Below are positions 1,802-28,876 of a stretch of 64,000 bases of DNA, in pieces. The translations under genes and the position numbers were made by a program. The DNA lies in assembly GCA_017405875.1 (NCBI GenBank), contig JAFQZM010000013.1, forward strand, positions 1,709-65,708. Direction: 5' to 3'. Origin of the DNA: a bacterium (GTDB lineage Bacteria > UBP6 > UBA1177). The notes under the pieces are model-generated. The model saw only the letters and a program-made list of their open reading frames with translations. It had not been told where the DNA came from and made no database searches. Position 1 is the stretch's first letter, and each line of letters opens with the position of its first letter.

Positions 1802-1829
1802 CGAGCGGCTTTGACTGCTCCCGGAATAA

Positions 1830-1874
1830 GGCTCCACTGAGGCAGGGGAGCTGCCGCAAAGCGGCTGAGGGGTC
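1830..1874. repeat. Copy (inverted orientation) of the dispersed ~48 bp hairpin repeat family (CCTCTCAG..CAGCTCCCCT..GGGGAGCC type)
   Basis: ggctccactgaggcaggggagctgccgcaaagcggctgaggggtc matches the family consensus seen at 26956-27003 and 27449-27538. It lies between the pepD stop and the guaA start. Confidence 0.5.
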
Positions 1875-1898
1875 TTGGTAAGTTATTTGGAGGTTTTC

Positions 1899-4068: not shown

Positions 4069-5646
4069 ATGATCACGGGTGAACTTAAAAACAAAATCGA
4101 CAGTCTTTGGGAAATTTTCTGGACGGGCGGGCTCACGAATCCGCTTGATGTCATCGAGCAGATGACCTATCTGATGTTTATCCACGATCTTGACGAGACT
4201 GACAATCTCCGTGCGAAAGAGGCTGCGATGCTGGGCTTGCCTTATGAGAGCATTTTTGCCAAGGAGGTGCATGCCGGCGAGCGCACTGTTGACGGAAGTA
4301 TGCTCAAGTGGAGCGCTTTCCACGATTTTCCGGCTGCGAAGATGTATTCCACGGTGCAGGAATGGGTTTTCCCGTTCATCAAAAACCTGCACGGCGACAA
4401 GGAAAGTGCCTATTCAAAATATATGGGCGACGCTATTTTCAAGGTGCCGACTCCTCTCATGCTTGATAAGATCGTGACGGCGATGGACGGTATCTACGAG
4501 CAGATGGCACAGCTCAAGACCACGGACACACGCGGCGATGTCTATGAGTATCTCCTTTCCAAAATCGCGACTGCCGGTGTAAACGGGCAGTTCCGCACTC
4601 CGCGCCACATTATCCGGATGATGGTCGAACTTATGGATCCCAAGGCTGACGAGATCGTCTGCGACCCTGCCTGCGGCACATCGGGCTTTCTTGTTGCTGT
4701 CAGCGATTACCTCAAGGAGAGGCGCAAAGAGGAGGTTTTCTTCAACCGTCAGAACAAAGACCACTACATGAACTGCATGTTCCACGGTTTTGATATGGAC
4801 CGCACGATGCTCCGTATCGGCGCGATGAACATGATGACGCACGGTGTTGACAATCCTTTCATCGAATACCGCGACAGTCTTTCCGACCAGAATCCAGACC
4901 GCGACAAATATTCCCTTATTCTCGCGAATCCCCCTTTCAAAGGGAGTCTGGACGCGGATATCGTCTCGACCGATCTGCTTAAAGTCTGCAAAACCAAAAA
5001 GACGGAACTTCTCTTTTTAACACTTTTCCTGCGTATGCTCAAAGTGGGCGGACGCTGTGCATGCATCGTTCCCGACGGCGTTCTTTTCGGGTCTTCGACT
5101 GCGCACAAAGCCATCCGCAGTGAACTTATTGAAAACAACCGTCTTGAAGCGGTTATTTCGATGCCCTCAGGCGTGTTCAAACCGTATGCTGGTGTTTCGA
5201 CTGCGATCCTCATCTTCACCAAAACAGGGCACGGCGGCACCGACAAAGTCTGGTTCTACGACATGAAAGCTGACGGATACAGCCTTGATGACAAACGCAG
5301 TCCCGTCAAAGAAAACGATATTCCGGATATAATTCAGAAGTTTACCCTCTCAGTCGCTTCGCGCCAGCTCTCCCAAAGGGCGAGCCAAGAACTTGCCTCC
5401 CACTCAGGGGGAGGTGTCGCCGCAGAAAGCGGTGACGGAGAGGGCGACCGCACCTCGCAATCCTTCTTCGTTCCGAAAGATGAAATCGTCGCCAACGACT
5501 ACGACCTTTCCATCAACAAATACAAACAAACGGAATATGTGGCGGTAGAATACCCGCCCACAAGCGAAATCATGGCAAAAATCGATGAACTCGAAAGCGA
5601 GATCCAGACAGAACTTGCAGAGTTGAAGAAGATGATTGGAGAATAG
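4069..5646 (+). CDS. hsdM: Type I restriction-modification system, N6-adenine DNA methyltransferase subunit M
   Basis: 525 aa with an HsdM N-domain, AdoMet-binding region and the NPPF catalytic motif (LILANPPFKGS). RBS GGAG upstream. Carries an in-frame 40-codon repeat insertion (see 5344-5452). Confidence 0.95.
   Translation: MITGELKNKIDSLWEIFWTGGLTNPLDVIEQMTYLMFIHDLDETDNLRAKEAAMLGLPYESIFAKEVHAGERTVDGSMLKWSAFHDFPAAKMYSTVQEWVFPFIKNLHGDKESAYSKYMGDAIFKVPTPLMLDKIVTAMDGIYEQMAQLKTTDTRGDVYEYLLSKIATAGVNGQFRTPRHIIRMMVELMDPKADEIVCDPACGTSGFLVAVSDYLKERRKEEVFFNRQNKDHYMNCMFHGFDMDRTMLRIGAMNMMTHGVDNPFIEYRDSLSDQNPDRDKYSLILANPPFKGSLDADIVSTDLLKVCKTKKTELLFLTLFLRMLKVGGRCACIVPDGVLFGSSTAHKAIRSELIENNRLEAVISMPSGVFKPYAGVSTAILIFTKTGHGGTDKVWFYDMKADGYSLDDKRSPVKENDIPDIIQKFTLSVASRQLSQRASQELASHSGGGVAAESGDGEGDRTSQSFFVPKDEIVANDYDLSINKYKQTEYVAVEYPPTSEIMAKIDELESEIQTELAELKKMIGE
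5344..5452. repeat. Inverted pair of the ~48 bp hairpin repeat family, inserted in-frame within hsdM
   Basis: ccctctcagtcgcttcgcgccagctctcccaaagggcgagccaag followed by its imperfect reverse complement. Encodes TLSVASRQLSQRASQELASHSGGGVAAESGDGEGDRTSQS inside HsdM without breaking the frame. Confidence 0.6.
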
Positions 5647-5648
5647 GG

Positions 5649-7046
5649 ATGGAAAATCAGAATATTGAATACAAGCAGTCTTGGCGTGACGAATATCTCA
5701 AATGGGTCTGCGCCTTTGCAAATACAGACGGAGGCAGGCTTTATATCGGTGTAAAGGATGACGGCACTGTCTGCGGCGTGGATGATGCACACAAACTGAG
5801 CGAAGATATTCCGAATAAAATCCGTAATTCCATGGGTCTGATCTGCGCTGTCAATCTGCTTTCCGAGAACGGTCTTGATTATTTTGAAATCGTTATCGAA
5901 AAATATCCGTTTCCTGTAAGTTATCACGGCAGATATTACAAGCGCACAGGCTCTACGATTCAGGAAGTAAGCGGTATCGAGCTGGATAAAATGATTCTGG
6001 GAGTCCAGGGCCGCACATGGGATTCGGTTCCGGTTCCGCATATTTCGGTTGCAGATCTGGAAAATGACGCGATCAGACTTTTCAAGAAAAAGGCTAAAGA
6101 ATCGGGTCGTCTTGATGACGAGGCTTTAGATGTGACAAACGAAACTCTCATTCAGAATCTGCACATTACGGAAGGTCACTACTTGACCCGTGCCTGTATG
6201 CTTGCGTTCCATCCCGACCCTGAAAGATGGGTAACAGGCGCATATATCAAAGTCGCCTATTTTGAAAATGATGCAGACATTCTCTATCAGGATGAAATTC
6301 ACGGCCCGCTGATTCTTCAGGTCGAAAAAACAATGGAGCTGATTTATACAAAGTATATGAAAGCTCTCATTTCCTATGATGACCTCTACAGAAAGGAAAC
6401 CTTTTTCTTCCCGAAATCGGCGTTTCGTGAGCTGCTTCTGAATGCCGTGATCCACAAAGATTATCTTTCCACCACGCCGATTCAGATCCGTATTTACAAA
6501 GACAAAATCCGTCTCTGGAACGACGGAGCGCTTCCCAAAGAAGTTCCGGTCGAGGATTTGTTTAAGGAACACGTTTCAAAACCGTGCAATCCGAACCTTG
6601 CGAATGTCTTCTTCAAATGCGGCATGATTGAAAGCTGGGCTCGCGGCTTCAACAAAATTACAAGATACTGCGAAGAGGAAAACGCAAAACTACCGGTAAT
6701 CGACCTTTCTCTCGGCGGTGTAACTGCCCGCTGCTATGCGTCGGATGTCTATCTGGCACTGATGAATGAGTATGAAAATGCAGAAAAGTTCACAGAAAAT
6801 GACCAGAAAACTGTGGAAAAGACAGAAAAAGTGCCCAAAAGGTGCCCAAAAAGTGCCCAAAAGACATATCTTGCTATTGTAAAAAATCCCAACGCAACTA
6901 TCGAAGAATTAAGCAAAGAACTTGGGATATCTGAACGAGCTGTAAAAAAACATCAAAAATTACTCAAGGATGCAAATTTGATAACACGTCTGGAAGGAAG
7001 AAAATCTGGTTATTGGGAGATTGTGCAGGGGGAAGAGAATGAGTAA
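5649..7046 (+). CDS. AlbA_2/Schlafen-like putative DNA-binding domain protein with a C-terminal HATPase_c_4-like region and a winged-HTH (RecG-like transcriptional regulator family commonly embedded in Type I RM loci)
   Basis: N-terminus EYKQSWRDEYLKWVCAFANTDGGRLYIGVKDDGTVCGV is the AlbA_2 'divergent AAA' signature. C-terminal HTH (IEELSKELGISERAVKKHQKLL). Sits between hsdM and hsdS. Contains an in-frame 11 bp triplet repeat near its 3' end. Confidence 0.75.
   Translation: MENQNIEYKQSWRDEYLKWVCAFANTDGGRLYIGVKDDGTVCGVDDAHKLSEDIPNKIRNSMGLICAVNLLSENGLDYFEIVIEKYPFPVSYHGRYYKRTGSTIQEVSGIELDKMILGVQGRTWDSVPVPHISVADLENDAIRLFKKKAKESGRLDDEALDVTNETLIQNLHITEGHYLTRACMLAFHPDPERWVTGAYIKVAYFENDADILYQDEIHGPLILQVEKTMELIYTKYMKALISYDDLYRKETFFFPKSAFRELLLNAVIHKDYLSTTPIQIRIYKDKIRLWNDGALPKEVPVEDLFKEHVSKPCNPNLANVFFKCGMIESWARGFNKITRYCEEENAKLPVIDLSLGGVTARCYASDVYLALMNEYENAEKFTENDQKTVEKTEKVPKRCPKSAQKTYLAIVKNPNATIEELSKELGISERAVKKHQKLLKDANLITRLEGRKSGYWEIVQGEENE
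6781..6862. repeat. Short-period motif array (AGTTCACAGAAAA, ACTGTGGAAAAG, 3x GTGCCCAAAAR) inside the 3' part of the AlbA_2-like CDS
   Basis: Read directly; same motif repertoire as the arrays at 7058-7280 and 10978-11200. Translated in-frame as KTVEKTEKVPKRCPKSAQK. Confidence 0.6.
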
Positions 7047-7057
7047 AAAAATGTCCG

Positions 7058-7280
7058 AAAAAACTGTGGAGAAGAACTGTGGAGAAAAACAGAAAACTGT
7101 GGAGAAAACTAGGGAGAAAATCGGACTGAAGGTCACCAAAAAGGTCACCGAAAAGGTCACTATAAAAACTACCCAGAAAATAAAAAGTGGCCAAAAAAGT
7201 GGCCTGAAAACGCTAAAAAGTGGCCAGAAAAACGGCCTAAAAAGTTCGCAGAAAGGTTCACAGAAAAGTGGACAGAAAAT
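7058..7280. repeat. Array of ~12 bp units of form [variable 6-mer]+(A)GAAAA, each 6-mer repeated 2-3x in tandem (ACTGTGGAG, ACTAGGGAG, GGTCACC x3, ACTACCCAG, AGTGGCC x3, GTTCACAG, AGTGGAC)
   Basis: Read directly, between the AlbA_2 gene end and the hsdS start. ORF 7021-7290 (K-rich tetrapeptide repeats KTVE/KVTK/KSGQ) is its translation. Confidence 0.7.
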
Positions 7281-7296
7281 TGCGGGGTGACGAGAG

Positions 7297-8439
7297 ATGA
7301 AAACGGTAAGACTTGGAGATATATGCGATATTGTTTCTGGCGGAACCCCATCGCGGTCAAAGCCAGAATTTTGGCAGGATGGTACTATTCCTTGGATTAA
7401 GATCGGAAACATAAGGGGAAAATATGTATCGAAAGCAGATGAATACATTACAAAGGCTGGTTTGGATGCTTCTTCTGCAAAGATGCTGCCCAAAGGAACA
7501 ATTCTCTATACTATCTTTGCGACGCTGGGAGAGGTCTGTATTCTGGACATTGAAGCTTGCACAAATCAAGCTATTGCTGGCATTTCAATGCGAGAGTCAT
7601 CAGGAACTAAATCTGACTATTTATACTATTATCTAAAATCAAAAAAAAGCTATGTTAATGGAATTGGTCGTGGTGTTGCCCAAAACAACATTAACATGTC
7701 AATGCTACGTGATTTTAGAATACCATTACCAACAATTGAGCAACAAGATAAAATTGTTTCTGTCCTTGACAGAATATCCTCAATAATAGCACTACGTCGC
7801 CAGCAGCTCACCGCCCTCGATGAGCTCGTCAAAGCAAGGTTTGTGGAGATGTTTGGGGATGGGAAATATGATTTGAAGTCGGTTGAAGAATTGTGTTCTG
7901 AAATAGTAGACTGCCCACACACAACGCCTAAATATGATGGGGAATTGAAAAATCCTGCTATCAGAACTTCAGAAATAAAAAAGGGTTATATTGCATGGGA
8001 ATCTATGAAGTTTGTTTCTGATGATGAATATGAAGAAAGAATTGCCAGACTTCGCCCAGAAGCTGGAGATATCGTATATGGACGAGAAGGAACATTTGGA
8101 AATGCAGCAATACTTCCTGCAGGATATAAATTTTGTTTAGGACAGAGAGTTATGCTACTTAGACCAAATTATAAAAAAACTTCTTCCGAATATTTACTTC
8201 ATGCCGTTATCTCAGATGATGTTTACAAACAGGCCTTGGATAAAAATAATGCTTCTACTGTGGCACATGTAAATGTGAAAGATGTAAAGCAGTTTAAAGT
8301 ACCTTTGCCACCATTAGATTTACAGAAACGATTTGCTGATTTCGTTTCTCAGGTTGACAAAACTAAAGCAAACATTCAAAAATCCCTTGAAAAATCGCAG
8401 CTTTTGTTTGATAGTTTGATGCAGGAATATTTTGGGTAG
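7297..8439 (+). CDS. hsdS: Type I restriction-modification system specificity subunit S (two target-recognition domains)
   Basis: 380 aa with duplicated TRD architecture and conserved central/C-terminal HsdS repeats (LPPLDLQKRFADFV..). Position between hsdM and hsdR. Confidence 0.9.
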   Translation: MKTVRLGDICDIVSGGTPSRSKPEFWQDGTIPWIKIGNIRGKYVSKADEYITKAGLDASSAKMLPKGTILYTIFATLGEVCILDIEACTNQAIAGISMRESSGTKSDYLYYYLKSKKSYVNGIGRGVAQNNINMSMLRDFRIPLPTIEQQDKIVSVLDRISSIIALRRQQLTALDELVKARFVEMFGDGKYDLKSVEELCSEIVDCPHTTPKYDGELKNPAIRTSEIKKGYIAWESMKFVSDDEYEERIARLRPEAGDIVYGREGTFGNAAILPAGYKFCLGQRVMLLRPNYKKTSSEYLLHAVISDDVYKQALDKNNASTVAHVNVKDVKQFKVPLPPLDLQKRFADFVSQVDKTKANIQKSLEKSQLLFDSLMQEYFG

Positions 8440-8448
8440 GAGGGAAAA

Positions 8449-9828
8449 ATGAACAGCATTGATAAAATACAAGAACTTTTTAAGCAATTATCTGAGAATC
8501 GTGACAAATTATCTGTCATTCTGCCTCAGTTATACCCGATAGCATTAGAGCAAAAAGACTTCGTCGGCTTCTGTTTGCTATATCTATGGGGAACACCGTT
8601 GGGTACATGCAACGAAGCGAATCAGTTATATTTTCAAGATGCTACTAACATGATGCGTTTAGCAGGAATAAGTGAAGAAGACGCTACGAAGATCGAAGCA
8701 ACAGCTGCGAAACAATATTTGTCAATGAGAGACATAAACAAAGATAATGTCCCGAAAGATAAGATAAAAATATGGTCTGCACGAGAACTTGAAGATTTCC
8801 TTCAGCGTTGCGATGTGCAAATTGCCGACTTGAAAGTTCCGGACGGATTAAATCCACTTGCTTCTTATCATATGGAGCAGAGGATTAACTATCAAAAATT
8901 ATCAATCCGTTCAAGCAAAACACAGGCTGAAAAGCAGTATGCTATTTTACATCAGTTAATAACCTCAAAACTTGCTGAGTATCAGACAAAATTATCACAA
9001 ATGGAAGAAATAGGAACAACGCAGGAGAACAACATGACACCATATGAGAAATTAAGGAAATTACGCGACGAAATAGATGAGTTGATTGATAAACAGATGA
9101 CATATTCATTGCCTGAATTCAAAAACTGGCATAAAGAACTCGGATTATTTTTGTCAGAAAAATACGGCACACAAAGCAAGCAATATAAGAATTTTATCGG
9201 GCGGAGTTTTGCACCAAGTCTTCCGCATACTTCAGCACAAGATTATATTGATTCTTGCAAGCGTGGTTTGGAAATAACTCGAACCGAATTATCAGCATAC
9301 TTGGATGACATGAAAGGAGAAACTACGGAATTAGCAATAAATATCCCTAAAGAAAAAGGAGAAATAAGCATGGGAAAAGAAACAAAGGACAGAAAAAAAG
9401 TTTTTATTGTTCACGGGCATGATGAAGCAAAAAGACGGGAATTAAAAGAATTCCTAAAAGACAAACTTAAATTAGATCCTATTGTGTTATCTGACCAATT
9501 GCCCGAAAAAACACTGATTGATAAATTCGAAAAATATGCAAAGCAGTGTTCATACGCTTTTGTTATATATACTCCTGATGATCAAGTCTCCAATCAAGAA
9601 CAAAAATATTTTCAAGCTCGTCCGAATGTTATTTTTGAGTTGGGTTGGTTCTATGCACATTTTGCGGGTTCTCCTAATATTTGTATACTGAAGCAAGAGA
9701 CGGATGCTAAAGATAACTTGATTTTTTCAGATCTACAAGGAGTCGAATATCTTACTTTCAGAAAAGATATTGAGGAAAAATTTTATAAAATTCAAGAAAT
9801 ACTTAAGGCAAGAGGAATTATTAACTAA
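8449..9828 (+). CDS. Two-domain protein: ~300 aa alpha-helical N-terminal domain of unknown function plus a C-terminal TIR-like nucleotide-binding domain (COG4271 / PF10137, CAP12-PycTIR type)
   Basis: C-terminus KKVFIVHGHDEAKRRELKEFLKDKLKLDPIVL...YAFVIYTPDDQ...QARPNVIFELGWFYAHFAGSPNICILKQ...SDLQGVEYLTF follows the PF10137 consensus as I recall it (VFIVHGhD...vvLlTpDD...RaRqNVifElGyF...vEiPSDlsGv.Y), including the conserved Glu. Excellent RBS AGGAGGGAAAA. Very AT-rich. 10 bp after hsdS. Confidence 0.7.
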   Translation: MNSIDKIQELFKQLSENRDKLSVILPQLYPIALEQKDFVGFCLLYLWGTPLGTCNEANQLYFQDATNMMRLAGISEEDATKIEATAAKQYLSMRDINKDNVPKDKIKIWSARELEDFLQRCDVQIADLKVPDGLNPLASYHMEQRINYQKLSIRSSKTQAEKQYAILHQLITSKLAEYQTKLSQMEEIGTTQENNMTPYEKLRKLRDEIDELIDKQMTYSLPEFKNWHKELGLFLSEKYGTQSKQYKNFIGRSFAPSLPHTSAQDYIDSCKRGLEITRTELSAYLDDMKGETTELAINIPKEKGEISMGKETKDRKKVFIVHGHDEAKRRELKEFLKDKLKLDPIVLSDQLPEKTLIDKFEKYAKQCSYAFVIYTPDDQVSNQEQKYFQARPNVIFELGWFYAHFAGSPNICILKQETDAKDNLIFSDLQGVEYLTFRKDIEEKFYKIQEILKARGIIN

Positions 9829-9858
9829 GACGAGGGACGCAATTGACAGGAGAACAGA

Positions 9859-10857
9859 ATGGGTAAAATCGTTGAAATAGCTAAAATATTAGTTTCACCT
9901 ACTGAAAAATTAATTGATGTAATTCGAGCTGCAATTGGTAAAGCCTATGAACCAAGATATGAGAAAAGGATGAGTGATGCTAAAGCATATGAAATTACAA
10001 CTGTTGCAAACGCATTAAGAGATTCAAGCGACATTCCTATCACATATAGTAAAGAAGGCTTGACAATGAGCACAACAGATTTTGATGAGTTCAAAAAACG
10101 AACTCAAAGCCGTTTGGCATATCAAGAGCTGACAAAACAAAAAAATATAGAGTCTGTAGCTGATTACGCCTACGCACAATTAGAAGGTGCGGCAGATGTT
10201 CCTAATGATCCTGTTGATCAAGATTGGATAAATAGATTCTTTAATTCTGTTGCTGATGTCAGCAATGAAGATATGCAACTTTTGTGGGGAAAAATTCTTG
10301 CAGGTGAAGTTAAACAACCAGGGAGCTTTTCATTGCGTACTTTGGAAACTTTAAGAAATATGAGCAAAAAAGATGCTGAACTTTTTGTTAAAATTGCTCC
10401 ATTTTTAGTTTCTATCACTTCTGACTCTCAAAAAGTACTTTCTTCAGATGACGAATTATGTGAAAAGTATGGTTTGTCTTATGGAAAGATTATTATGATC
10501 TTGGATGAATGTGGATTGATTAATTCTTCAGCATTTCTGACTTTCAATCTTTCGCTTACTAAAGAACAAGAAATTCCTGTGTATACTCTCGAAAGAGTTG
10601 CTTTGCTGAGAGGACTAAACGATAACAGTGTAAAAATTTCATTTGGGGTCCACACTTTAACAAAAGTAGGATTGGAATTGTTTAATCTTATTGATGCAAA
10701 ACCAAACAATGAATATTTTAGTGATTTCATAAAGAACATAGAATCAGCTAACAAAGGAAAAGTTGTTGCAACTATTCATAGTGTAAATACGATACAAAAT
10801 GGTGGCATAAATTATAAAAAGGAACCTATCGAAATTATTAAAAGTGATAATAAATAA
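9859..10857 (+). CDS. DUF2806-like protein (uncharacterised; assignment from recalled motif)
   Basis: 332 aa; central DQDWINRFFNSVADVSNEDMQLLWGKILAGEVKQPGSFSLRTLETLRNMSKKDAELF resembles the DUF2806 (PF10987) core as I remember it. RBS AGGAGAACAGA. 30 bp after the TIR-like gene, same strand. Confidence 0.5.
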   Translation: MGKIVEIAKILVSPTEKLIDVIRAAIGKAYEPRYEKRMSDAKAYEITTVANALRDSSDIPITYSKEGLTMSTTDFDEFKKRTQSRLAYQELTKQKNIESVADYAYAQLEGAADVPNDPVDQDWINRFFNSVADVSNEDMQLLWGKILAGEVKQPGSFSLRTLETLRNMSKKDAELFVKIAPFLVSITSDSQKVLSSDDELCEKYGLSYGKIIMILDECGLINSSAFLTFNLSLTKEQEIPVYTLERVALLRGLNDNSVKISFGVHTLTKVGLELFNLIDAKPNNEYFSDFIKNIESANKGKVVATIHSVNTIQNGGINYKKEPIEIIKSDNK

Positions 10858-10977
10858 ATTGCAAGGCAAACCAATGACCGGCTTTATTAAACAAATTCTC
10901 TACGCAGCGTGTAGCGAATTAAGCAGGTCACATATCCGTGAAACAGCGGCGGTTATTGCTTCTTTTGGCAATAGCAC

Positions 10978-11200
10978 CAAAAAACTACCAAGACAAATGC
11001 GAAAAAACTAGGGTAGAAAGCGAAAAAACTAGGGTGGAAAATGAGAAAACTAGGGTAAAAAACTGTGGAGAAAACCAAGAAACTGTGGAGAAAAACTGTG
11101 GAGAAAACTAAAACAATTACCCAAAAAACTACCCAAAAAAGTTCACAGAAAAGTACAGTGAAAGGTACAGTGAAAAGTACGGTGAAAAGTTCGGAAAAAA
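10978..11200. repeat. Second ~12 bp motif array (ACTAGGGT x3, ACTGTGGAG x3, ACTACCCA x2, GTTCACAGAAAA, GTACAGTG x2, GTACGGTG, GTTCGG)
   Basis: Read directly. Shares ACTGTGGAGAAAA, ACTAGGG, ACTACCCA and GTTCACAGAAAA units with the 7058-7280 array, so the two arrays bracket hsdS plus the two embedded genes. ORF 11065-11388 is its translation. Confidence 0.7.
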
Positions 11201-11226
11201 TAATGGAACTCGTTAAAATTGTAGAA

Positions 11227-11272
11227 CCCCTCTCAGTCGCTTTGCGACAGCTCTCCCTAAGGGCGAGCCAAG
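11227..11272. repeat. Copy of the ~48 bp hairpin repeat family
   Basis: cccctctcagtcgctttgcgacagctctccctaagggcgagccaag. Confidence 0.6.
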
Positions 11273-11364
11273 AAAGAGGAGCGAGTCTTAGTAGTTACTA
11301 CCAAGACAAATGTGGAAAAACGAATTTAAAAAAATGCGGTAATTTTGGGGTGTTAGAAATAAAA

Positions 11365-11557
11365 GTGAACTTTAAAAGTGTACTTTAAGTAGCCTTTAAG
11401 TGTACTTTAAAAGTAGACTTTAAGTAGACTTTAAGTAGCCTTTAAGTGTACTTTAAAAGTATACTTTAAGTAGCCTGAGTAGACTTTGAGTAGACTTTGA
11501 GTAGACTTTGAAGTAGACTTTGAGTAGACTTTAAGTGGTCTTTAAGTAGACTTTGAA
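11365..11557. repeat. Tandem array of ~17 copies of an 11 bp unit GTAGACTTTRA (variants GTGTACTTTAAAA, GTAGCCTTTAA, GTGGTCTTTAA)
   Basis: Read directly; period 11 (occasionally 12-13). Ends ~35 bp before the hsdR start codon. Confidence 0.8.
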
Positions 11558-11589
11558 ATGGAAGACGAGAAGGTAAATGCGGAGAAAAC

Positions 11590-14397
11590 ATGATGCCGGA
11601 AGAAGTTAAAAAGTTTGATGTTTCAAACCCCTCTCAGTCTGCTGCGCAGCCAGCTCTCCCTAATGGCGAGCCAAGCGAATACGCGACCCGCAAAAAATAC
11701 ATCGACACGATGCTGCGTGATGACGGCTGGATAGAGGGAAAAAACTGGCTCAACGAATACGAACTCCCTGGTATGCCGAACAAGTCGGAAGTGGGTTTTG
11801 CCGACTATGCGCTGTTCGGTGACGACGGCCGCATCCTTGCTGTAATCGAGGCGAAACGCACCTGCGTCGATGTTTCAAAAGGGAGGCAGCAGGCAAAACT
11901 TTACGCCGATCTGATTGAGAAGAAGCAGGGATTCCGCCCGGTTGTTTTTCTTTCAAACGGTTTCGAGACGCGGATCGTTGACAACCAGTATCCTGAGCGG
12001 AAGGTCGCAAGGATCTATTCAAAACGCGATCTTGAAAAGTGGTTCAATCTTCAGCGGATGCGCAGCATCCTGAAAAACATTATGGTGGATAGAAATATCG
12101 CCGGACGTTACTATCAGGAAGCTGCAATAAAAGCGGTATGCGACAGCTTCGGAGAGAAAAACCGCAGAAAGGCTCTCCTTGTCATGGCGACAGGTTCCGG
12201 CAAAACAAGAACCGTCATCGCTCTCGTAAAAGTGCTGATGGACAAGGGCTGGATCAAAAACGTCCTCTTCCTCGCAGACAGAAATTCCCTCGTGACCCAG
12301 GCGAAACGCAGCTTTGTGAACCTTCTCCCCGATCTTTCTGTCACAAATCTCTGCGAAGAAAAATGCAACATAGAAGCTCACTGCGTCTTTTCGACTTACC
12401 AGACAATGATAAACTGCATCGATTCAGTGCGCGACAAAGAAGGAAGAGTCTTTTCCTGCGGACACTTCGACCTTCTGATATGCGACGAAGCGCACCGCTC
12501 GATCTACAACAAATATCAGGAAATTTTCAACTACTTCGATTCTCCGCTCGTAGGTCTCACCGCGACACCGAAAGACGAAATCGACAAAAACACCTACGAG
12601 GTTTTCGAGCTTGAAAACGGCGTTCCGACTTACGGATACGAGCTGGCGCAGGCAGTAAAAGACGGCTATCTGGTCGATTTTCTTTCAGTCGAAACGACAC
12701 TCAAATTCATCCAGCGCGGAATAGTTTACGACGAACTGAGCGATGAAGAAAAAGAGGAATACGAAAAGACTTTTGCCGATGAAAGCGGCGAAATCCCCGA
12801 AAGCATCACCCCGTCAGCACTGAACGACTGGATCTTCAACGAAGACACCATCCGCAAAGTCCTGCGAATCCTGATGAACGACGGACTTAAAATCGACTAC
12901 AACAGCAAAATCGGCAAAACGATCATCTTTGCAAAAAACCACAGACACGCCGAAAAAATCCTCGAAGTTTTCGGGAAGGAATTTCCCCACCTGAACAACT
13001 ACGCCAAAGTGATCGACAACACCATAAACTATGCCCAGAGCGCGATCGACGAATTCTCGGACGCAAAAAAACTGCCGCAGGTAGCCATTTCAGTCGATAT
13101 GCTCGATACCGGAATCGATGTTCCCGAAGTGCTGAATCTGGTTTTCTTCAAAGTCGTTCTCAGCAAAGCAAAATTCTGGCAGATGATAGGACGCGGAACA
13201 CGCCTATGCCCGGGACTTATCGACGGATTCGACAAGACAAAATTCTATATCTTCGATTTCTGCGGGAACTTCGAGTTTTTCCGCATGAACAAAGGGCGCG
13301 CAAGTGCCGAAACTGTGGCTCTGCAAGGGGCTCTTTTCCTTCTCAAAGCGCAGATCGCCTTCAAACTTCAGGAGATCATCTGGCAGACACCTGAACTCAT
13401 CGCTTTCCGCAAAAAACTGGTTGAGGAAATGGTGAAAAAAGTGCGCGAACTCGACCGCGGCAATTTTGCCGTAAGACAGCATCTGAAATATGTCGAACTC
13501 TATTCAGACCCTGAAAACTACAAGGCTTTGACTTACGAAGAGACACTCAACATGAAGCGCGAACTCGTGCCGCTTATCCAGCCCGACATCGATGATGTCA
13601 AAGCACTGCGTTTCGATGCCCTTCTTTACGGAATAGAGCTTGCATTATTAGCAGGAAACAAATACGGCGCGGCGCGGAACGACCTCATGAAAAAGGTGAA
13701 TGCCGTGGCAAATATCGCCAATATTCCCGCAATTATGATGCAGTCAGAACTTATAAACAAAATCCTCCACACATATTACCTGGATACCGCAGGAATCATG
13801 GAATTTGAGGAGATCCGCATAAATCTGCGCAATCTGATGACGTATGTCAACTATTCGCACAGTCTATACGACACGAATTTCAGCGACGAAGTGCTTTCGA
13901 CAAAATGGAGCGTCGCAGAAGCCGAAACTACCTATCTCGCAACTTACCGCGAACGGGCGGAATACTTTGTCCGCAAGCACCAGAACGAAGGAGTCATCGC
14001 CAAACTCAAAAGCAATCTTCCTCTCACAGGCAAAGATATGACCGATCTCGAGGCGATACTCTGGAGCGAAGCAGGAACCAAGGAAGATTACGAAGCTTTG
14101 TATAAAGCAAAACCGCTCGGCGAATTCGTGCGTGAAATCGTCGGACTCGACATGAATGCGGCAAAAGAGGCTTTCGCGGAATTTCTGAACAACACCAGCC
14201 TTGACAGCCGCCAGATCTATTTCGTCAACCAGATCGTGGAATACATCGTTCACAACGGCATGATGAAAGACCTTTCAGTCCTTCAGGAAGCACCGTTTAC
14301 CGACCGCGGCAGCATCGTGGAAGTCTTCACCGACCTTTCAGTCTGGGCAGGCATCCGCAAAGTAATTGAGCAGGTCAACGCAAACGCAGCGGCGTAA
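11590..14397 (+). CDS. hsdR: Type I restriction-modification system restriction subunit R (SF2 helicase/endonuclease)
   Basis: 935 aa with an N-terminal RKKYIDTMLRDDGW HsdR motif, PD-(D/E)xK region (VIEAKR), Walker A ATGSGKTRT, DEAH-like LICDEAHRS and helicase C-motifs (QMIGRGTR). The N-terminal 30 aa include an in-frame repeat copy. Confidence 0.95.
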   Translation: MMPEEVKKFDVSNPSQSAAQPALPNGEPSEYATRKKYIDTMLRDDGWIEGKNWLNEYELPGMPNKSEVGFADYALFGDDGRILAVIEAKRTCVDVSKGRQQAKLYADLIEKKQGFRPVVFLSNGFETRIVDNQYPERKVARIYSKRDLEKWFNLQRMRSILKNIMVDRNIAGRYYQEAAIKAVCDSFGEKNRRKALLVMATGSGKTRTVIALVKVLMDKGWIKNVLFLADRNSLVTQAKRSFVNLLPDLSVTNLCEEKCNIEAHCVFSTYQTMINCIDSVRDKEGRVFSCGHFDLLICDEAHRSIYNKYQEIFNYFDSPLVGLTATPKDEIDKNTYEVFELENGVPTYGYELAQAVKDGYLVDFLSVETTLKFIQRGIVYDELSDEEKEEYEKTFADESGEIPESITPSALNDWIFNEDTIRKVLRILMNDGLKIDYNSKIGKTIIFAKNHRHAEKILEVFGKEFPHLNNYAKVIDNTINYAQSAIDEFSDAKKLPQVAISVDMLDTGIDVPEVLNLVFFKVVLSKAKFWQMIGRGTRLCPGLIDGFDKTKFYIFDFCGNFEFFRMNKGRASAETVALQGALFLLKAQIAFKLQEIIWQTPELIAFRKKLVEEMVKKVRELDRGNFAVRQHLKYVELYSDPENYKALTYEETLNMKRELVPLIQPDIDDVKALRFDALLYGIELALLAGNKYGAARNDLMKKVNAVANIANIPAIMMQSELINKILHTYYLDTAGIMEFEEIRINLRNLMTYVNYSHSLYDTNFSDEVLSTKWSVAEAETTYLATYRERAEYFVRKHQNEGVIAKLKSNLPLTGKDMTDLEAILWSEAGTKEDYEALYKAKPLGEFVREIVGLDMNAAKEAFAEFLNNTSLDSRQIYFVNQIVEYIVHNGMMKDLSVLQEAPFTDRGSIVEVFTDLSVWAGIRKVIEQVNANAAA
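11628..11675. repeat. In-frame copy of the ~48 bp hairpin repeat within the first 30 codons of hsdR
   Basis: cccctctcagtctgctgcgcagccagctctccctaatggcgagccaag encodes NPSQSAAQPALPNGEPSE upstream of the conserved HsdR N-motif. Confidence 0.55.
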
Positions 14398-14559
14398 CCC
14401 TCTCAGCCAGCGTTGCGAAGAAACCCTCTCAGTCGCTTCGCGCCAGCTTCCCCTGAGTGGGAGCCATGTGGGTGAGAGGCAAGTCTTGGCTCGCCCTTTG
14501 GGAGAGCTGTCTGCACAGCAGACTGAGAGGGCAAAGTGTCACGCAGTGACGGAGAGGGC
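14398..14559. terminator. Cluster of 3-4 copies of the hairpin repeat family in inverted orientation immediately after the hsdR stop; likely transcription terminator / island boundary
   Basis: ccctctcagtcgcttcgcgccagcttcccctgagtgggagcca ... cttggctcgccctttgggagagctgtctgcacagcagactgagaggg form a long inverted repeat, plus partial flanking copies. Confidence 0.5.
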
Positions 14560-14571
14560 ATCAGCCGATTT

Positions 14572-26692: not shown

Positions 26693-26718
26693 TCCCTTTG
26701 TCCTCGAACTACATACCG

Positions 26719-26759
26719 GCGAATTTATTACCCGAACCACAGATATTTGCAATAAAATA
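26719..26759. promoter_or_regulatory. Copy 2 of the 40-mer promoter block (GCGAATTTATTACCCGAACCACAGATATTTGCAATAAAATA)
   Basis: 39/41 identical to 24388-24428; immediately upstream of the minus-strand membrane protein gene. Confidence 0.4.
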
Positions 26760-26955
26760 GTATGATTTCTATCCCTTCAAAGCCGTGAGTGATGCGATAT
26801 AGATACCGTCAGAAGGTAATTCTTTCAAAAAAGCGCCGTTCTTCAAAGTTTTTGGCAACCTCACCCTCAATCCCTCTCCAATGTGGCGAGGGAAAATGCG
26901 GTGCCACTTTTTCCCGGTATTTTCGGATGGTTTTTGCCACTTTTTCCAGGTAAAT

Positions 26956-27538
26956 GACCTCTCAGACAACCTGCGGTTGCCAGCTCCCCTACTTCAGGGG
27001 AGCCTAGACGGGGAGCCAAAATATATCGACAATTTTTTGTCATTAGATATTTGTGTTTGATTTATTTGCCATTTGAGTTTTGTGGTAAAATGAGAAAGAG
27101 ACCGCTTCTTGTAGAAGCAGCAAGAATACTGCGTAAAGATATGACTCCTCAGGAAAAACATCTATGGTTTGATTTTTTGCGTCATTATCCCGTAAAGATC
27201 TACAAACAAAAAATTATAAATGATTTCATTGCTGATTTTTACTGCGCTAAAGCAATGTTGATTATAGAACTTGACGGCAACCAACATTATACTGAAGACG
27301 GCTTGGCTCATGATGCTGAAAGGACCAATGTTTTAAACGCATTAGGCTTTTTGGTCATTCGATTTCCGAACTCGGAAATCGATAATAATTTTTCGTCAGT
27401 CTGCAATCAAATCGACAACATCATACAAACTAGAATTAAGGTCCCAATGACCTCTCCGTCACGTAGTGACTGAGAGGTTTAAGGCTCCCCTGAGGTAGGG
27501 GAGCTGGCTGCGTAGCTGTCTGAGAGATCTGAGAGGTC
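26956..27538. mobile_element. Mini element: DUF559 endonuclease-like gene bracketed by ~50 bp terminal inverted repeats of the hairpin-repeat family
   Basis: Left end GACCTCTCAGACAACCTGCGGTTGCCAGCTCCCCTACTTCAGGGGAGCC; right end (reverse complement) GACCTCTCAGATCTCTCAGACAGCTACGCAGCCAGCTCCCCTACCTCAGGGGAGCC. Inserted between the duplicated 40-mer and 30-mer promoter blocks. Confidence 0.45.
27090..27473 (+). CDS. DUF559 (Vsr-like PD-(D/E)xK endonuclease fold) protein
   Basis: MRKRPLLVEAARILRKDMTPQEKHLWFDFLR...FIADFYCAKAMLIIELDGNQH...RTNVLNALGFLVIRFPNSEI has the classical DUF559 layout. Confidence 0.75.
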   Translation: MRKRPLLVEAARILRKDMTPQEKHLWFDFLRHYPVKIYKQKIINDFIADFYCAKAMLIIELDGNQHYTEDGLAHDAERTNVLNALGFLVIRFPNSEIDNNFSSVCNQIDNIIQTRIKVPMTSPSRSD

Positions 27539-27571
27539 TAAAAAAAACACCTTCAAACCCCGTTTTCCCTA

Positions 27572-27601
27572 TTGACATCTGCCGCAACTTGTGGGATTTT
27601 A
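27572..27601. promoter_or_regulatory. Copy 2 of the 30-mer promoter block (TTGACATCTGCCGCAACTTGTGGGATTTTA), 31 bp upstream of wzt
   Basis: 28/30 identical to 24442-24471, with the same spacing to the start codon. Confidence 0.4.
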
Positions 27602-27631
27602 TGGCGTTTTTGTTTTGTGTTGCTGGTGCTT

Positions 27632-28876
27632 ATGAGCGAAACCGTCATCAAAGTCGAAAATATCTCGAAATTTTATCAGTTGGGTCTCATCAATCACGGT
27701 ACTCTTGCCAAGGATCTGCAGGGATGGTGGGCAAAAATACGCGGAAAAGACGACCCGAATTCACGCATTTCCATGGTCTCAAACAAAAACACCAATTCCG
27801 ACACCGATTTCATCTACGCCCTGAAAGATGTCTCGTTTGATGTCCAGCAGGGAGAAGTTCTGGGGATCATCGGAGCCAACGGTGCCGGCAAATCGACCCT
27901 TCTCAAAATTTTGAGCCGCGTCACCTCACCCACAAGCGGCTGCATCAAGATCAAAGGGCGCATCGGCTCTCTCCTTGAAGTCGGGACCGGCTTCCACCCC
28001 GAACTTACAGGCAGAGAAAACATCTATCTCAACGGTGCGATCCTCGGCATGAGACGCCATGAAATAGACAAAAAACTTGATGAAATCATTGACTTTTCAG
28101 GAGTTGAAAAGTTCATTGACACACCCGTAAAAAGATATTCTTCCGGAATGTATGTCCGTCTCGCATTCGCGGTAGCGGCACACCTCGACCCCGAGATCCT
28201 CGTAGTTGACGAAGTTTTGGCAGTCGGAGATGCTGATTTCCAGAAAAAATGCCTCGGAAAAATGGATGATGTCAGCAAAAAAGAAGGCCGGACAGTGCTG
28301 TTTGTCAGCCACAACATGGCGGCAGTGAAGCAATTATGTGATCGTTCGCTTATCATAGAAAAAGGCAGTATTATTTTTGACGGAGATTGTGGAGAAGCAA
28401 TAGATAAATACACAACGGATGAAATGTCTGAATTCAACAAGTTTCTTCCGTCTGTAAAAAGATATGGTAGCGGCGAAGCTAAAATAGTTGATTTTATTGT
28501 TGATCCTAAAAAACCAGAGTGCGCAAAAGAGATAAAATTTACTTTTGTCATTAACTCTTCCTGCGAAATAAAAGATGCCTCTTGTGCTGTTTCTTTCAGA
28601 GATTCGATGGGAAATCTTTTGTTTCAGTTCTTTTCTGAAAATATGAATAAAACTTATGTTTTAAAGCCAGGAATCAATAAAATTTCTGTTTCCGTGCCGC
28701 AATGTCCACTTGTAGAAGGTATTTATCGTTCTTCTTTGTGGCTTGGGAAAAATTCAAAAAATGTTCTTGATTTTTGTGAAGATTCACTCTTTCTTAAAGT
28801 TTTTTATAATCAGGAAGGCAAATTTATAGATAATAGAAAATATCATATAATCTTTGACAGCAACTGGAGTGATTAA
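27632..28876 (+). CDS. wzt: ABC polysaccharide/O-antigen exporter ATP-binding protein with C-terminal glycan-binding domain
   Basis: MSETVIKVENISKFY..., Walker A GANGAGKST, signature YSSGMYVRL, Walker B ILVVDEVL and an ~150 aa C-terminal extension typical of Wzt. Confidence 0.9.
   Translation: MSETVIKVENISKFYQLGLINHGTLAKDLQGWWAKIRGKDDPNSRISMVSNKNTNSDTDFIYALKDVSFDVQQGEVLGIIGANGAGKSTLLKILSRVTSPTSGCIKIKGRIGSLLEVGTGFHPELTGRENIYLNGAILGMRRHEIDKKLDEIIDFSGVEKFIDTPVKRYSSGMYVRLAFAVAAHLDPEILVVDEVLAVGDADFQKKCLGKMDDVSKKEGRTVLFVSHNMAAVKQLCDRSLIIEKGSIIFDGDCGEAIDKYTTDEMSEFNKFLPSVKRYGSGEAKIVDFIVDPKKPECAKEIKFTFVINSSCEIKDASCAVSFRDSMGNLLFQFFSENMNKTYVLKPGINKISVSVPQCPLVEGIYRSSLWLGKNSKNVLDFCEDSLFLKVFYNQEGKFIDNRKYHIIFDSNWSD

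Follow-up and report, generated by a model that had tools for sequence, protein, structure and literature searches.

What relation does a nuclease-fold gene bear to the dispersed repeat whose inverted copies enclose it on both sides? This question is raised by a DUF559 gene in the 64-kb stretch of DNA that we analyzed (hereafter "the window"). The initial annotation described the gene and its repeats as a miniature mobile element. Our analysis points to a different arrangement, in which a stand-alone DUF559 gene and oppositely oriented triplex-type repeats form a widespread, conserved module, and DUF559 would be the nuclease cognate to these repeats. We assign a probability of roughly 50% to this reading, which is based on comparisons of sequence. 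The 583-bp unit in the window would then be one local form of the module.

Anatomy of the DUF559 cassette

Two repeats of ~50 nt in inverted orientation (positions 26956-27005 and 27483-27538) enclose a DUF559 gene on the plus strand (27090-27473), and the complete IR-gene-IR unit spans 583 bp. The gene and its repeats are real features, as first described. The encoded protein matches Pfam family PF04480 (DUF559) with E = 9e-28, and the 27-nt core of the left and right arms is 96% complementary, according to an inverted repeat search. The ~80% match originally given for the arms is also confirmed, because identity over the entire arms is ~80-84%, with a gap that falls in the small second hairpin. 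However, the right repeat does not overlap the gene's 3' end, as had been proposed. It begins 10 nt past the TGA stop codon (27471-27473), and the overlap belongs to a separate 30-nt mini-palindrome that runs across this codon (27449-27478, plus strand; ACCTCTCcGTCACgtaGTGACtGAGAGGT).

The left arm is one "L" unit, whose purine-rich strand is the minus strand. Its parts are a tail' (GACCTCTCAGAC), hairpin B (CAACC-tgc-GGTTG), and hairpin A (GCTCCCC-tacttca-GGGGAGC). The right arm is one unit in "R" orientation on the plus strand, in which hairpin A (GGCTCCCC-tgaggta-GGGGAGCT) is followed by a hairpin B that is weak (GCT-gcgt-AGC) and by a tail present in duplicate (CTGAGAGAT/CTGAGAGGTC). As single-stranded DNA, both arms form two hairpins each, with z = -3.3 to -5.1 versus shuffles; folding was performed with ViennaRNA, which models hairpins only. 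The core pattern GCTCCCCTN5AGGGGAGC, with two or fewer mismatches, occurs in three copies in the 64-kb window, versus zero in 100 dinucleotide-preserving shuffles. The third copy is found at 1826-1875.

An extra copy of the G-rich arm adjoins hairpin A (26997-27018, plus strand; GGGGAGCC-tagac-GGGGAGCC), and in relative L014 this extra arm has grown to five copies. It is followed by an AT-rich leader (27019-27089, plus strand; aTCGACAattttttg...TATTTG) that is conserved with relatives L011 and L014 and that flips along with the DUF559 gene. This leader is the putative promoter region of DUF559, and a promoter and terminator scan of 26700-27700 was uninformative. At the other end of the gene, the mini-palindrome has the layout tail'-hairpin B-tail. 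It is left over from two units that fused, and is what remains of the L unit that, in most other lineages, begins at the last codons of DUF559. The beginning of the left arm recurs here, in the first 11 nt of the mini-palindrome together with the AAT before them (AATGACCTCTC, found at 26953 and at 27446).

The conserved left flank carries a two-copy repeat with 33-nt spacing (26902-26952, plus strand; core TGCCACTTTTTCCNGGTA). This repeat is outside the unit family. In relatives it remains joined to the left arm on its outer side, and it is present in three copies in L011. The cassette as a whole borders a hypervariable polysaccharide locus.

The arms have the layout of intrastrand-triplex repeats

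The arms had been assigned to a family of dispersed hairpin repeats. They do belong to a dispersed family, but its members carry triplex-type blocks and are not plain hairpins. In each unit, the C-rich/G-rich hairpin A is followed by hairpin B, which is small and variable, and then by a tail of purines that is a mirror of the G-rich arm. Such an order of blocks suggests that the arms are intrastrand-triplex motifs of the BoxC/PIT/TM class, and not plain hairpin inverted repeats or ordinary transposon ends. Knowledge of BoxC, PIT, and TM (TMECO) repeats in E. coli goes back to the 1990s (Bachellier, 1990s; Hoyne and Maher 2000; Holder et al. 2015, PMC4666352). Triplex folding of these repeats was demonstrated in vitro, and they mark rearranged loci (PMC4666352).

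As in these published repeats, a pyrimidine block, a complementary purine block, and a mirror purine block lie on one strand in our units. The core words CCCTCTCCC / GGGAGAGGG are shared, as is a recurrent variant with a G.A mismatch (CTCGCCC/GGGAGAG). Both sets of repeats occur as tens of dispersed copies, frequently as inverted pairs of two subtypes, and at rearranged loci. A triplex-motif scan detected both arms, as well as a BoxC-like motif on the minus strand at 26859-26893 (minus-strand reading TCCCTCGCC-acatt-GGAGAGGGA-ttg-AGGGTGAGG), and produced no hits in the reversed-sequence control. The hairpin at 26859-26893 has a G.A mismatch, the same as in the E. coli TMECO type "A mm" (TMECO Table 1, PMC4666352).

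The main structural difference concerns the loops. In both arms, loop 1 measures 7 nt, whereas loop 2, which forms hairpin B, measures 18-25 nt. Only the motif at 26859-26893 has a loop 2 of 3 nt, and the connector of E. coli BoxC is likewise 3 nt. More generally, the arms and the Clostridial units carry a hairpin of 13-25 nt with a GNA triloop as loop 2, in contrast to 1-6 nt in the published class. The published limits on loops are 1-6 nt in ITxF and 0-10 nt in Hoyne et al., and these search rules would miss the arms and the Clostridial units because loop 2 is too long.

Triplex-type covariation is observed among the units. Among purine-armed hairpins, 43% have a tail that mirrors the arm, versus 16% with permuted tails and 7% upstream of the hairpin. 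Changes in the arm are tracked by the tail, as in the arm/tail pairs GGGAGAG/GAGAGGG, AGGGAGG/GGAGGGA, and GGGGAG/GAGGGG. Of 161 distinct units, 76 have the three-way combination C:G*G, 68 have G:C*T, and 17 have something else. The two linked subtypes could reflect two clonal lineages instead of proving triads. Hairpin B is conserved in structure rather than in sequence. It folds at -3 kcal/mol or below in 57% of units (versus 8% of shuffles), and has 96 distinct stems, with 77 GNA triloops compared with two TNC triloops. On single-stranded DNA, hairpin A could accommodate the purine tail in its groove as a third strand of the purine-motif kind. A riboswitch-like alternative, in which hairpin A would pair with the tail through its 5' arm, was rejected. 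This pairing fits type-G units only, whereas the mirror (triplex) register fits both types.

The units are better conserved than the DUF559 gene (for example, Haliovirga and L019 share 95% identity in the unit and 58% in the core of the coding sequence), in an analysis that is partly circular because part of it picks units by pattern. The arms and ten related loci have only chance-level matches in Rfam, and no family match. MAFFT alignment misregistered window-type units, and descriptor scans with reversed-sequence controls were therefore used in place of a covariance model.

The DUF559 protein

The gene encodes a protein of 127 amino acids with the Vsr/EDxHD nuclease fold. The match to PF04480 scores 96.8 bits, compared with a cut-off of 20.6, and covers profile positions 5-108 of 109. 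DUF559 is the sole Pfam match for this protein, which does not qualify as an HUH Y1 (IS200/IS605-like) transposase. Residues D49, E60, D62, H66, D75, R78, and others are invariant in an alignment of 20 homologues and, by analogy, probably have catalytic roles. The protein matches PDB entry 3HRL (E = 1.7e-11). An AlphaFold model of it has a pLDDT of 78.6, and a Foldseek search with this model retrieved 3HRL (E = 5e-5), I-Bth0305I (3R3P; E = 3e-4), and Vsr (1CW0; TM 0.61). Judged by the invariant D/E/D/H/D residues and by the folds that the model resembles, the predicted nuclease looks active.

The fold and the conserved acidic and His residues are common to Vsr, I-Bth0305I, NGO0050 (3HRL), and YcjD. 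However, Vsr is coupled to the Dcm methylase and cuts T:G mismatches in duplex DNA, and I-Bth0305I is encoded in an intron and has extra DNA-binding domains, whereas the window protein is the bare 127-aa domain with neither methylase nor intron. Its score against the NCBIfam YcjD equivalog is 62.8, below the cut-off of 218; thus, it is not a YcjD orthologue.

Units are associated with DUF559 genes in many lineages

The initial annotation raised the possibility that the repeat family is linked to the DUF559 enzyme, and this proposal gains much from a comparison of loci. We scanned 83 non-redundant DUF559 loci, mostly from Clostridia and covering 807 kb, and found 245 units, versus six in the reversed-sequence control. 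Within 100 bp of the gene, with the gene body counted, there are 2.45 units/kb; this density is 1.78/kb at 100-250 bp and 0.03-0.11/kb beyond 500 bp. Units are therefore ~20- to 80-fold denser at the edges of DUF559 genes than >500 bp away, where the baseline is the ±5-kb flanks of the same islands. A unit is found within 150 bp of the DUF559 gene in 70 of the 83 loci. Both sides of the gene have one in 36 loci, and 13/83 loci lacked a unit in the strict scan.

The spacing is fixed: R units end 10-21 nt upstream of Met1, and L units start ~10 nt after residue 115. In the commonest layout, R[gene]L or LR[gene]LR, the unit tails point toward the gene. The window lineage has the opposite layout, L[gene]R, and its arms face the other way at 85 nt from the ATG, with the distinct conserved leader in between. 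The common arrangement is shared by Clostridia, Negativicutes, and Haliovirga, and in Haliovirga L+R doublets of ~105 bp flank the gene on both sides as direct repeats.

The association extends across phyla. Triplex motifs recur at eight distant DUF559 genes from five other phyla (zero hits in controls), in a scan that comprised eight loci only and included several genomes that are rich in such motifs. Lineage-specific motifs adjoin the DUF559 genes of Synechocystis, Picosynechococcus, Pseudanabaena, Deinococcus, and N. gonorrhoeae (3HRL family), which are 35-43% identical. The NGO0050-homologous locus of N. gonorrhoeae has triplex motifs alongside the gene, and so does E. coli ycjD, where TMECO no. 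9 is ~170 bp downstream. The sequence type of the adjacent repeats differs by lineage, and the triplex layout is constant. Most units are nevertheless far from any DUF559 gene, including 22 of 23 in E. coli K-12. Taken together, these sequence comparisons strongly support a link between the DUF559 nuclease and the repeat family.

The fixed positions of the inner units would be equally expected of gene-expression signals. For example, the units might serve as a 5' leader with a ribosome-binding site and as a 3' hairpin or insulator. They might also be passive neighbors, or accumulate in recombination-prone, dispensable DNA in which DUF559 genes reside too, namely defence and glycan islands. DUF559 would then act elsewhere, for example in restriction or defence, or in mismatch repair. 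The inner R unit ends 10-21 nt ahead of the start codon with a tail (GGAGAGG) that resembles a Shine-Dalgarno sequence, and the L unit begins at the last codons. Moreover, DUF559 genes are frequent within R-M and BREX loci, the only PADLOC match of the window protein is a weak one to a methyl-directed restriction enzyme (E = 1e-7), and the window locus and E. coli ycjD are both at variable sites. However, an enrichment calculated over the flanks of the same islands argues against mere accumulation in such islands. In the window lineage, the arms are still present despite being reversed and separated from the ATG by a distinct leader. The repeat sequence shifts with lineage while the triplex layout is kept, and the same units occur in both orientations, as arrays, and in frame inside ORFs. 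Finally, purine-motif triplexes are not formed in RNA (literature cited by Holder, PMC4666352). We regard these explanations as unlikely.

A possible nuclease-repeat partnership

We infer that DUF559 binds or cuts the units, thereby driving their spread or turnover. DUF559 would be a structure-specific nuclease cognate to the units, with a role like that of RAYT toward REP/REPIN, and its gene would occur as a single copy, be inherited vertically, and have substrates of the encoded enzyme on either side. Upon DNA unwinding, the protein would bind the folded unit and nick within it or next to it. Repair or replication at the nick could then copy, delete, invert, or reshuffle the units and their surroundings.

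In the REP/REPIN-RAYT system ("REPtron"), the nuclease gene is single-copy and vertically inherited, as the DUF559 gene would be, and it is likewise placed between inverted, short, structured repeats, which are dispersed elsewhere in the genome, often as inverted doublets. It differs in that RAYT is an HUH/Y1 transposase, whereas DUF559 has the PD-(D/E)xK Vsr fold. Our units also lack the GTAG/CGTC head and have a mirror third block, and action of DUF559 on the units is presumed.

On the repeat side, Holder et al. (2015) tied TM loci to rearrangement and reported neither a mobility gene nearby nor a protein partner or role (PMC4666352). The published work found no associated gene class, in contrast to the nuclease gene that is systematically adjacent here. 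Our literature search, whose coverage was incomplete, found no paper linking DUF559 to triplex repeats. For DUF559, a very large family, a structure has been solved and substrate and function are unassigned; BoxC/PIT/TM repeats are without a partner, so that each would gain a candidate partner.

A broader version of this proposal is more tentative, and we hold it with somewhat less confidence than the module itself. Stand-alone DUF559 proteins, including YcjD and NGO0050, may be dedicated nucleases of BoxC/PIT-type repeats throughout Bacteria. They would then represent a second, independently evolved partnership of the REPIN/RAYT kind, in which a Vsr-fold nuclease reads folded three-stranded DNA and is a source of the spread, inversion, and local genome instability long linked to these repeats. 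If true, this would add a nuclease that reads non-B DNA, and would account for rearrangement hot spots beside defence and surface-polysaccharide loci and for in-frame repeats in R-M genes. The question is testable in E. coli, which has one gene (ycjD) and 23 defined TMECO sites (PMC4666352).

Stability and inversion of the cassette

In the initial annotation, the 583-bp unit is a miniature mobile element, with DUF559 as its cargo or even its mobilizing nuclease. Such an element would be autonomous and move as a whole, and solo units would be its MITE-like derivatives. Terminal inverted repeats are indeed present, the DUF559/Vsr fold includes a homing endonuclease, and the Haliovirga doublets, as direct repeats, have the layout expected from a circle integrating into a solo doublet. 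In addition, contig L009 has a head-to-tail junction (aaggtcccaatgacctctcagacaacctgcgg) at the 11-nt direct repeat AATGACCTCTC. Either a 493-bp circle or a tandem copy would fit this junction, but it was observed only once and the contig could be chimeric. Against mobility, all relatives with 77-100% protein identity have DUF559 at the same chromosomal site beside wzt, with the same flanks and with one copy per contig. At this contig-level view, the gene is apparently single-copy in the window lineage, where the IR-gene-IR arrangement was found at a single locus type and at no further loci.

Empty sites and target-site duplications, both proposed earlier as signs of mobility, did not emerge from the comparison with relatives. 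None of the close relatives fetched has an empty cassette site, and the only candidate duplication at the cassette ends is a 4-nt TAAA with a 1-nt offset that is absent in L011. The neighboring genes encode a GT87-like membrane protein and Wzt, and include no site-specific invertase, transposase, or recombinase. The subfamily is nearly absent from plasmids and phages; the only matches were distant (<45% identity), on plasmids and on two faecal phage contigs that lack annotation. The rearrangements seen are the junction contig and the inversion described below, and a mobile element is very improbable.

Some relatives carry the cassette in the opposite orientation between conserved flanks, and the breakpoints fall within the arms. 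In L011, L101, L102, and L104, segment 27019-27436 aligns in plus orientation, and both flanks align in minus orientation and are swapped. Under the preferred reading of DUF559 as the cognate nuclease, the outer arms would recombine in the window lineage, and both cassette orientations would result among relatives. A programmed or recurrent switch, in which the arms flip the cassette and thereby alter wzt read-through or DUF559 expression, would also produce both orientations. DUF559 is listed among predicted inversion targets (Milman 2023), where "DUF559 domain-containing protein" is 14-fold enriched among predicted targets of programmed inversion. However, no invertase accompanies the cassette, and one orientation is fixed per sub-lineage: all ten contigs read, of 13 with the exact protein, match the window orientation. 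A switch would also leave unexplained the units elsewhere in the genome and the R[gene]L layout of other phyla, with its inverted repeat of ~45 nt. We therefore give a switch little chance.

Equally doubtful is a homing-type selfish gene, in which DUF559 cuts the tail-to-tail palindrome GAGAGGG-CCCTCTC and the gene is copied into this site. Such copying would account for a gene that is usually exactly between R and L units with tails toward it, and is in keeping with I-Bth0305I, a homing endonuclease, among the nearest folds and with the tail'-B-tail mini-palindrome at the 3' end of the window gene; however, no gene-less R-L allele of a DUF559-occupied site was found, the gene position is stable in the window lineage, and the arrangement there is the opposite one.

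Other units in the window

A descriptor scan found at least ten dispersed unit copies in the window. A solo unit of the native GGGGAG-type subfamily (1826-1875, plus strand) is located between an M20 peptidase gene and guaA, and its tail GAGGGG mirrors the arm GGGGAG exactly. In one relative, an L+R doublet is present upstream of guaA, and the upstream neighbor differs. Clean unit boundaries were sought by comparing regions upstream of guaA, but this comparison ran into a break in synteny. The closest named relatives by GuaA, at ~62% identity, belong to Acidobacteriota, Nitrospirota, and Bacteroidota, so that the window is probably not from a Clostridium.

Other copies reside within coding sequences. 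A 99-nt L+R doublet of Clostridial-type units (5346-5444, plus strand) is an in-frame insertion in hsdM, and another in-frame repeat is present in hsdR (11634-11672). L+R doublets that pair a type T unit with a type G unit occur. The in-frame copies distinguish our units from TMECOs, which are reported to be always intergenic. Short structured repeats that are tolerated in frame in protein-coding genes are also exemplified by Rickettsia palindromic elements. These elements are a sequence family unrelated to ours, have unrelated hosts, and are not known to have the triplex layout or an associated nuclease.

Presence and absence of units is observed in closely similar genes, because hsdM alleles that are 85-90% identical contain in-frame units in some cases and lack them in others. 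Simple insertion with duplication was considered for hsdM and rejected. Between the "empty" allele L110 and the "filled" allele L111, 15 nt are replaced by ~190 nt of units.

Inverted repeats around a DUF559 gene

The ORF at 27090-27473 (plus strand) encodes a protein of 127 amino acids that matches the Pfam family DUF559 (E=9e-28). As the initial annotation proposed, the gene lies between inverted repeats. The two flanks, 26956-27005 on the left and 27483-27538 on the right, are inverted copies of each other, with 96% complementarity in a 27-nt core and ~80-84% identity across the whole arms. Three copies of the core pattern are present in the window, versus none in 100 shuffles; the third copy is intergenic (1826-1875). 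Each arm forms two hairpins when folded as single-stranded DNA (z = -3.3 to -5.1). The right repeat had been described as overlapping the gene's 3' end. However, the right arm begins 10 nt past the stop codon, which is itself overlapped by a different element, a mini-palindrome (27449-27478).

The conserved left flank of this cassette also carries a 33-nt-spaced repeat with the core TGCCACTTTTTCCNGGTA (26902-26952). This repeat has three copies in the related loci L011 and L106, and in either cassette orientation it remains attached to the left arm's outer end.

A hairpin-loop variant of triplex-type repeats

The arms belong to a known class of triplex-type repeats, of which they form a new variant with a hairpin loop. 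On the purine-rich strand (plus in "R" units, minus in "L" units), a unit comprises hairpin A (such as GGCTCCCC-7 nt-GGGGAGCT), hairpin B, which is small and GC-rich, and a purine tail, CTGAGAGG(TC). The same layout is found with other sequences in Clostridia, in two versions: GCCTCTCCC-TTT-GGGAGAGGTG-[hairpin B]-ACGGAGAGGG and GGCTCTCCC-TTT-GGGAGAGCTG-[hairpin B]-CTGAGAGGG.

The tail mirrors the 3' arm of hairpin A and covaries with it, as in the arm/tail pairs GGGAGAG/GAGAGGG, AGGGAGG/GGAGGGA and GGGGAG/GAGGGG. When no tail is required for selection, a mirror copy lies downstream of 43% of purine-armed hairpins, compared with 16% when tails are permuted between units, 7% for the upstream side and 19% for copies in direct orientation. 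Moreover, one position varies in three places together: among 161 distinct units, 76 combine C:G with a tail G, 68 combine G:C with a tail T, and 17 have other combinations. Purine-motif triplexes accept both G*G:C and T*C:G as triads.

Hairpin B is kept as a structure rather than as a sequence. In units selected by hairpin A and tail only, the stretch between these two elements folds at ≤ -3 kcal/mol in 57% of cases, compared with 8% of shuffles. It includes 96 different stems, and its triloops on the purine strand are GNA in 77 cases and TNC in 2.

The published relatives of these units are the BoxC, PIT or "TM" intrastrand-triplex motifs found in E. coli as well as other bacteria, defined by a pyrimidine block, a complementary purine block and a mirror purine block (Holder et al. 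2015, PMC4666352). These motifs share their core, CCCTCTCCC-loop-GGGAGAGGG-TTA/CCG-GGGTGAGGG, with the units described here, and have two subtypes that make inverted pairs. A G.A mismatch (CTCGCCC/GGGAGAG) that is frequent in them is found in several window units also. The units described here differ in having hairpin B in place of the 3-nt loop of BoxC. One true short-loop copy is located immediately to the left of the left arm (26859-26893). Rfam has no family for the repeat units.

Association of the repeats with DUF559 genes

Triplex-type repeats are systematically juxtaposed to DUF559 genes in at least six phyla. A scan of GTDB species genomes yielded 80 loci with relatives at 48-67% identity, mostly in Clostridia but also in Megasphaera and Schwartzia. 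Almost all of these loci have an R unit that ends 10-21 nt upstream of the start codon, its tail doubling as a GGAGAGG ribosome-binding-like site, and an L unit that starts ~10 nt past the last conserved residue. A descriptor scan of 807 kb found 245 units, compared with 6 in reversed sequences. Their density is 2.45/kb within 100 bp of a DUF559 gene and 1.78/kb at 100-250 bp, versus 0.03-0.11/kb beyond 500 bp.

A unit lies within 150 bp of the gene in 70 of 83 non-redundant loci, and on both sides in 36. The commonest layout is R[gene]L; LR[gene]LR occurs in Haliovirga, Megasphaera and Schwartzia, and L[gene]R in the window and its close relative L014, with the remnant of an inner L unit at the stop codon. 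In the AT-rich Haliovirga abyssi (Fusobacteriota), the unit beside the gene shares 95% identity with a Clostridial one and the gene core 58%, a comparison that is partly circular for the pattern-selected part of the analysis.

More distant DUF559 genes (35-43% identity to the window protein) were examined at two Synechocystis plasmid loci, in Picosynechococcus, Pseudanabaena and Deinococcus, at the N. gonorrhoeae locus homologous to the crystallized NGO0050, and at E. coli ycjD. Triplex motifs of lineage-specific sequence, such as the cyanobacterial CCCCCC-agaatt-GGGGGG-cta-GGGGGG, lie beside every one; reversed-sequence controls gave 0 matches. In E. coli K-12 (1351029-1351839; L112 3530-4340), ycjD has number 9 of Holder's 23 TMECO sites ~170 bp downstream, and its stop codon is covered by a degenerate CCCTCTCCC...GAGGGGG hairpin. 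We calculate a probability of ~0.004 that, in 4.64 Mb, one of 23 sites would lie no more than 200 bp from a particular 354-bp gene. A 2026 paper places ycjD at a site that holds eefRABCD in other phylogroups, with a 12-nt indel at the ycjD 3' end.

The tie between repeat family and enzyme that the initial annotation suggested is well supported, recurring at 70 of 83 loci and at all distant genes examined. We infer that DUF559 proteins may recognize the folded units and would then nick them, in a partnership resembling that of RAYT with REP/REPIN, a reading to which we assign a probability of about 0.5. Units that act as passive expression signals, as the ribosome-binding-like tails might, or that hitch-hike at hot spots, seem an unlikely explanation.

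Holder et al. reported no functional class among genes neighboring TM sites and no mobility function nearby, and the terms "endonuclease", "DUF" and "ycjD" are absent from their text (PMC4666352). Our search of the literature on DUF559, YcjD, RAYT/REPIN, boxC and intrastrand triplexes found no paper linking DUF559 to such repeats.

Other features were seen at these loci. In N. gonorrhoeae, triplex-motif pairs are repeated three times with a ~281-bp period (L118 1983-2736), 3' of the homologue of NGO0050 (the PDB 3HRL protein), and one more motif lies upstream of the DUF559 gene. In cyanobacterial plasmids (L113-L115), DUF559 genes reside in defense-type loci, adjoining BREX PglX or between DUF499 and DUF1156 genes. 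Several Clostridial DUF559 genes are directly followed by an hsdR or PglX-like gene.

Stability and inversion of the cassette

The cassette is position-stable yet invertible. The exact protein is encoded on 13 contigs, and all 10 that were read have the same locus. Relatives of 77-95% identity always adjoin wzt, which encodes an ABC transporter and belongs to a polysaccharide cluster with otherwise variable gene content; on the far side are variable accessory genes (for example, AAA_14/DUF4143, DUF3800, KilA-N and ORF6N). Neither a target-site duplication nor an empty site was found for the cassette, and plasmids and phages almost entirely lack the window's DUF559 subfamily. The "miniature mobile element" of the initial annotation is therefore not borne out, and we regard a transposing mini-element as improbable.

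In the 866-bp contig L009, the 3' end of DUF559 is fused head to tail to the left arm, at an 11-nt direct repeat (AATGACCTCTC) that occurs at 26953 and 27446. A tandem copy or a 493-bp circle would give such a junction (L009 1-200), but it is a single observation that could be a chimera; the flank is normal in the nine other contigs read for the exact protein.

In L011 and L101-L104, the gene and its leader (27019-27436) keep their orientation, and both outer flanks are swapped and reversed; thus, exchange within the arms has inverted the cassette. In agreement with this, Milman et al. (2023) list DUF559 among predicted inversion targets, which would also favor an inversion switch. However, there is no invertase near the cassette, and the exact-protein strain has a single orientation (10 of 13 contigs read), so that such a switch is hard to credit.

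Predicted properties of the DUF559 protein

Residues D49, E60, D62, H66 and D75 are invariant in 20 homologues. Among solved structures, 3HRL is the closest by sequence, and an AlphaFold model (pLDDT 78.6) has structural matches in 3HRL, I-Bth0305I (a homing endonuclease) and Vsr. The protein is a bare nuclease domain and, judged from sequence and model, looks catalytically competent. That it is the product of a homing gene aimed at tail-to-tail junctions of units is, despite the I-Bth0305I match, a doubtful proposition.

Unit turnover and the type I R-M island

Units come and go in otherwise conserved DNA. A 99-nt L+R doublet (5346-5444) lies in frame inside hsdM (4069-5646). Homologues that are 85-90% identical have no insert, or other unit numbers and insert lengths, at exactly the same linker, and their proteins range from 490 to 699 amino acids. 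Between an "empty" allele (P0146/L110) and a "filled" one (P0124/L111), each ~90% identical to the window hsdM and with sequence variants elsewhere in common, 15 nt are replaced at this point by ~190 nt of units.

This gene belongs to a type I R-M island (4069-14397) with a Schlafen/AlbA_2 ATPase, a TIR protein (CAP12/Pycsar-like) and DUF2806 between hsdM, hsdS and hsdR. A single L-oriented unit (11634-11672) is translated in frame (...NPSQSAAQPALPNGEPS...) near the N-terminus of the hsdR-like ORF (11590-14397), and another unit is intergenic (11229-11269). At the hsdR stop codon begins an array of full and partial units (14397-14560), comprising two L-type starts, an R unit (14488-14530) and an extra hairpin B plus tail (14536-14558).

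The units of the island are Clostridial-type; those of the native GGGGAG type are only the two arms and the 1826-1875 copy. The host is a rumen/gut bacterium, and the nearest named relatives of its GuaA (~62% identity) are in other phyla. The window hsdM is ~80% identical to Clostridial genes even though the host is probably not a Clostridium, which suggests that the island was horizontally transferred along with its Clostridial-type units.

Upstream of guaA, a relative whose GuaA is 91% identical has an L+R doublet (L119 970-1090), compared with a single R unit in the window. The upstream neighbor of guaA differs in that relative, so units mark a synteny break here too. Upstream of hsdR (11000-11560) are two blocks of short AT-rich tandem repeats ("gaaaaaactagggt..." and "gtagactttaagt...") that are unrelated to the units.
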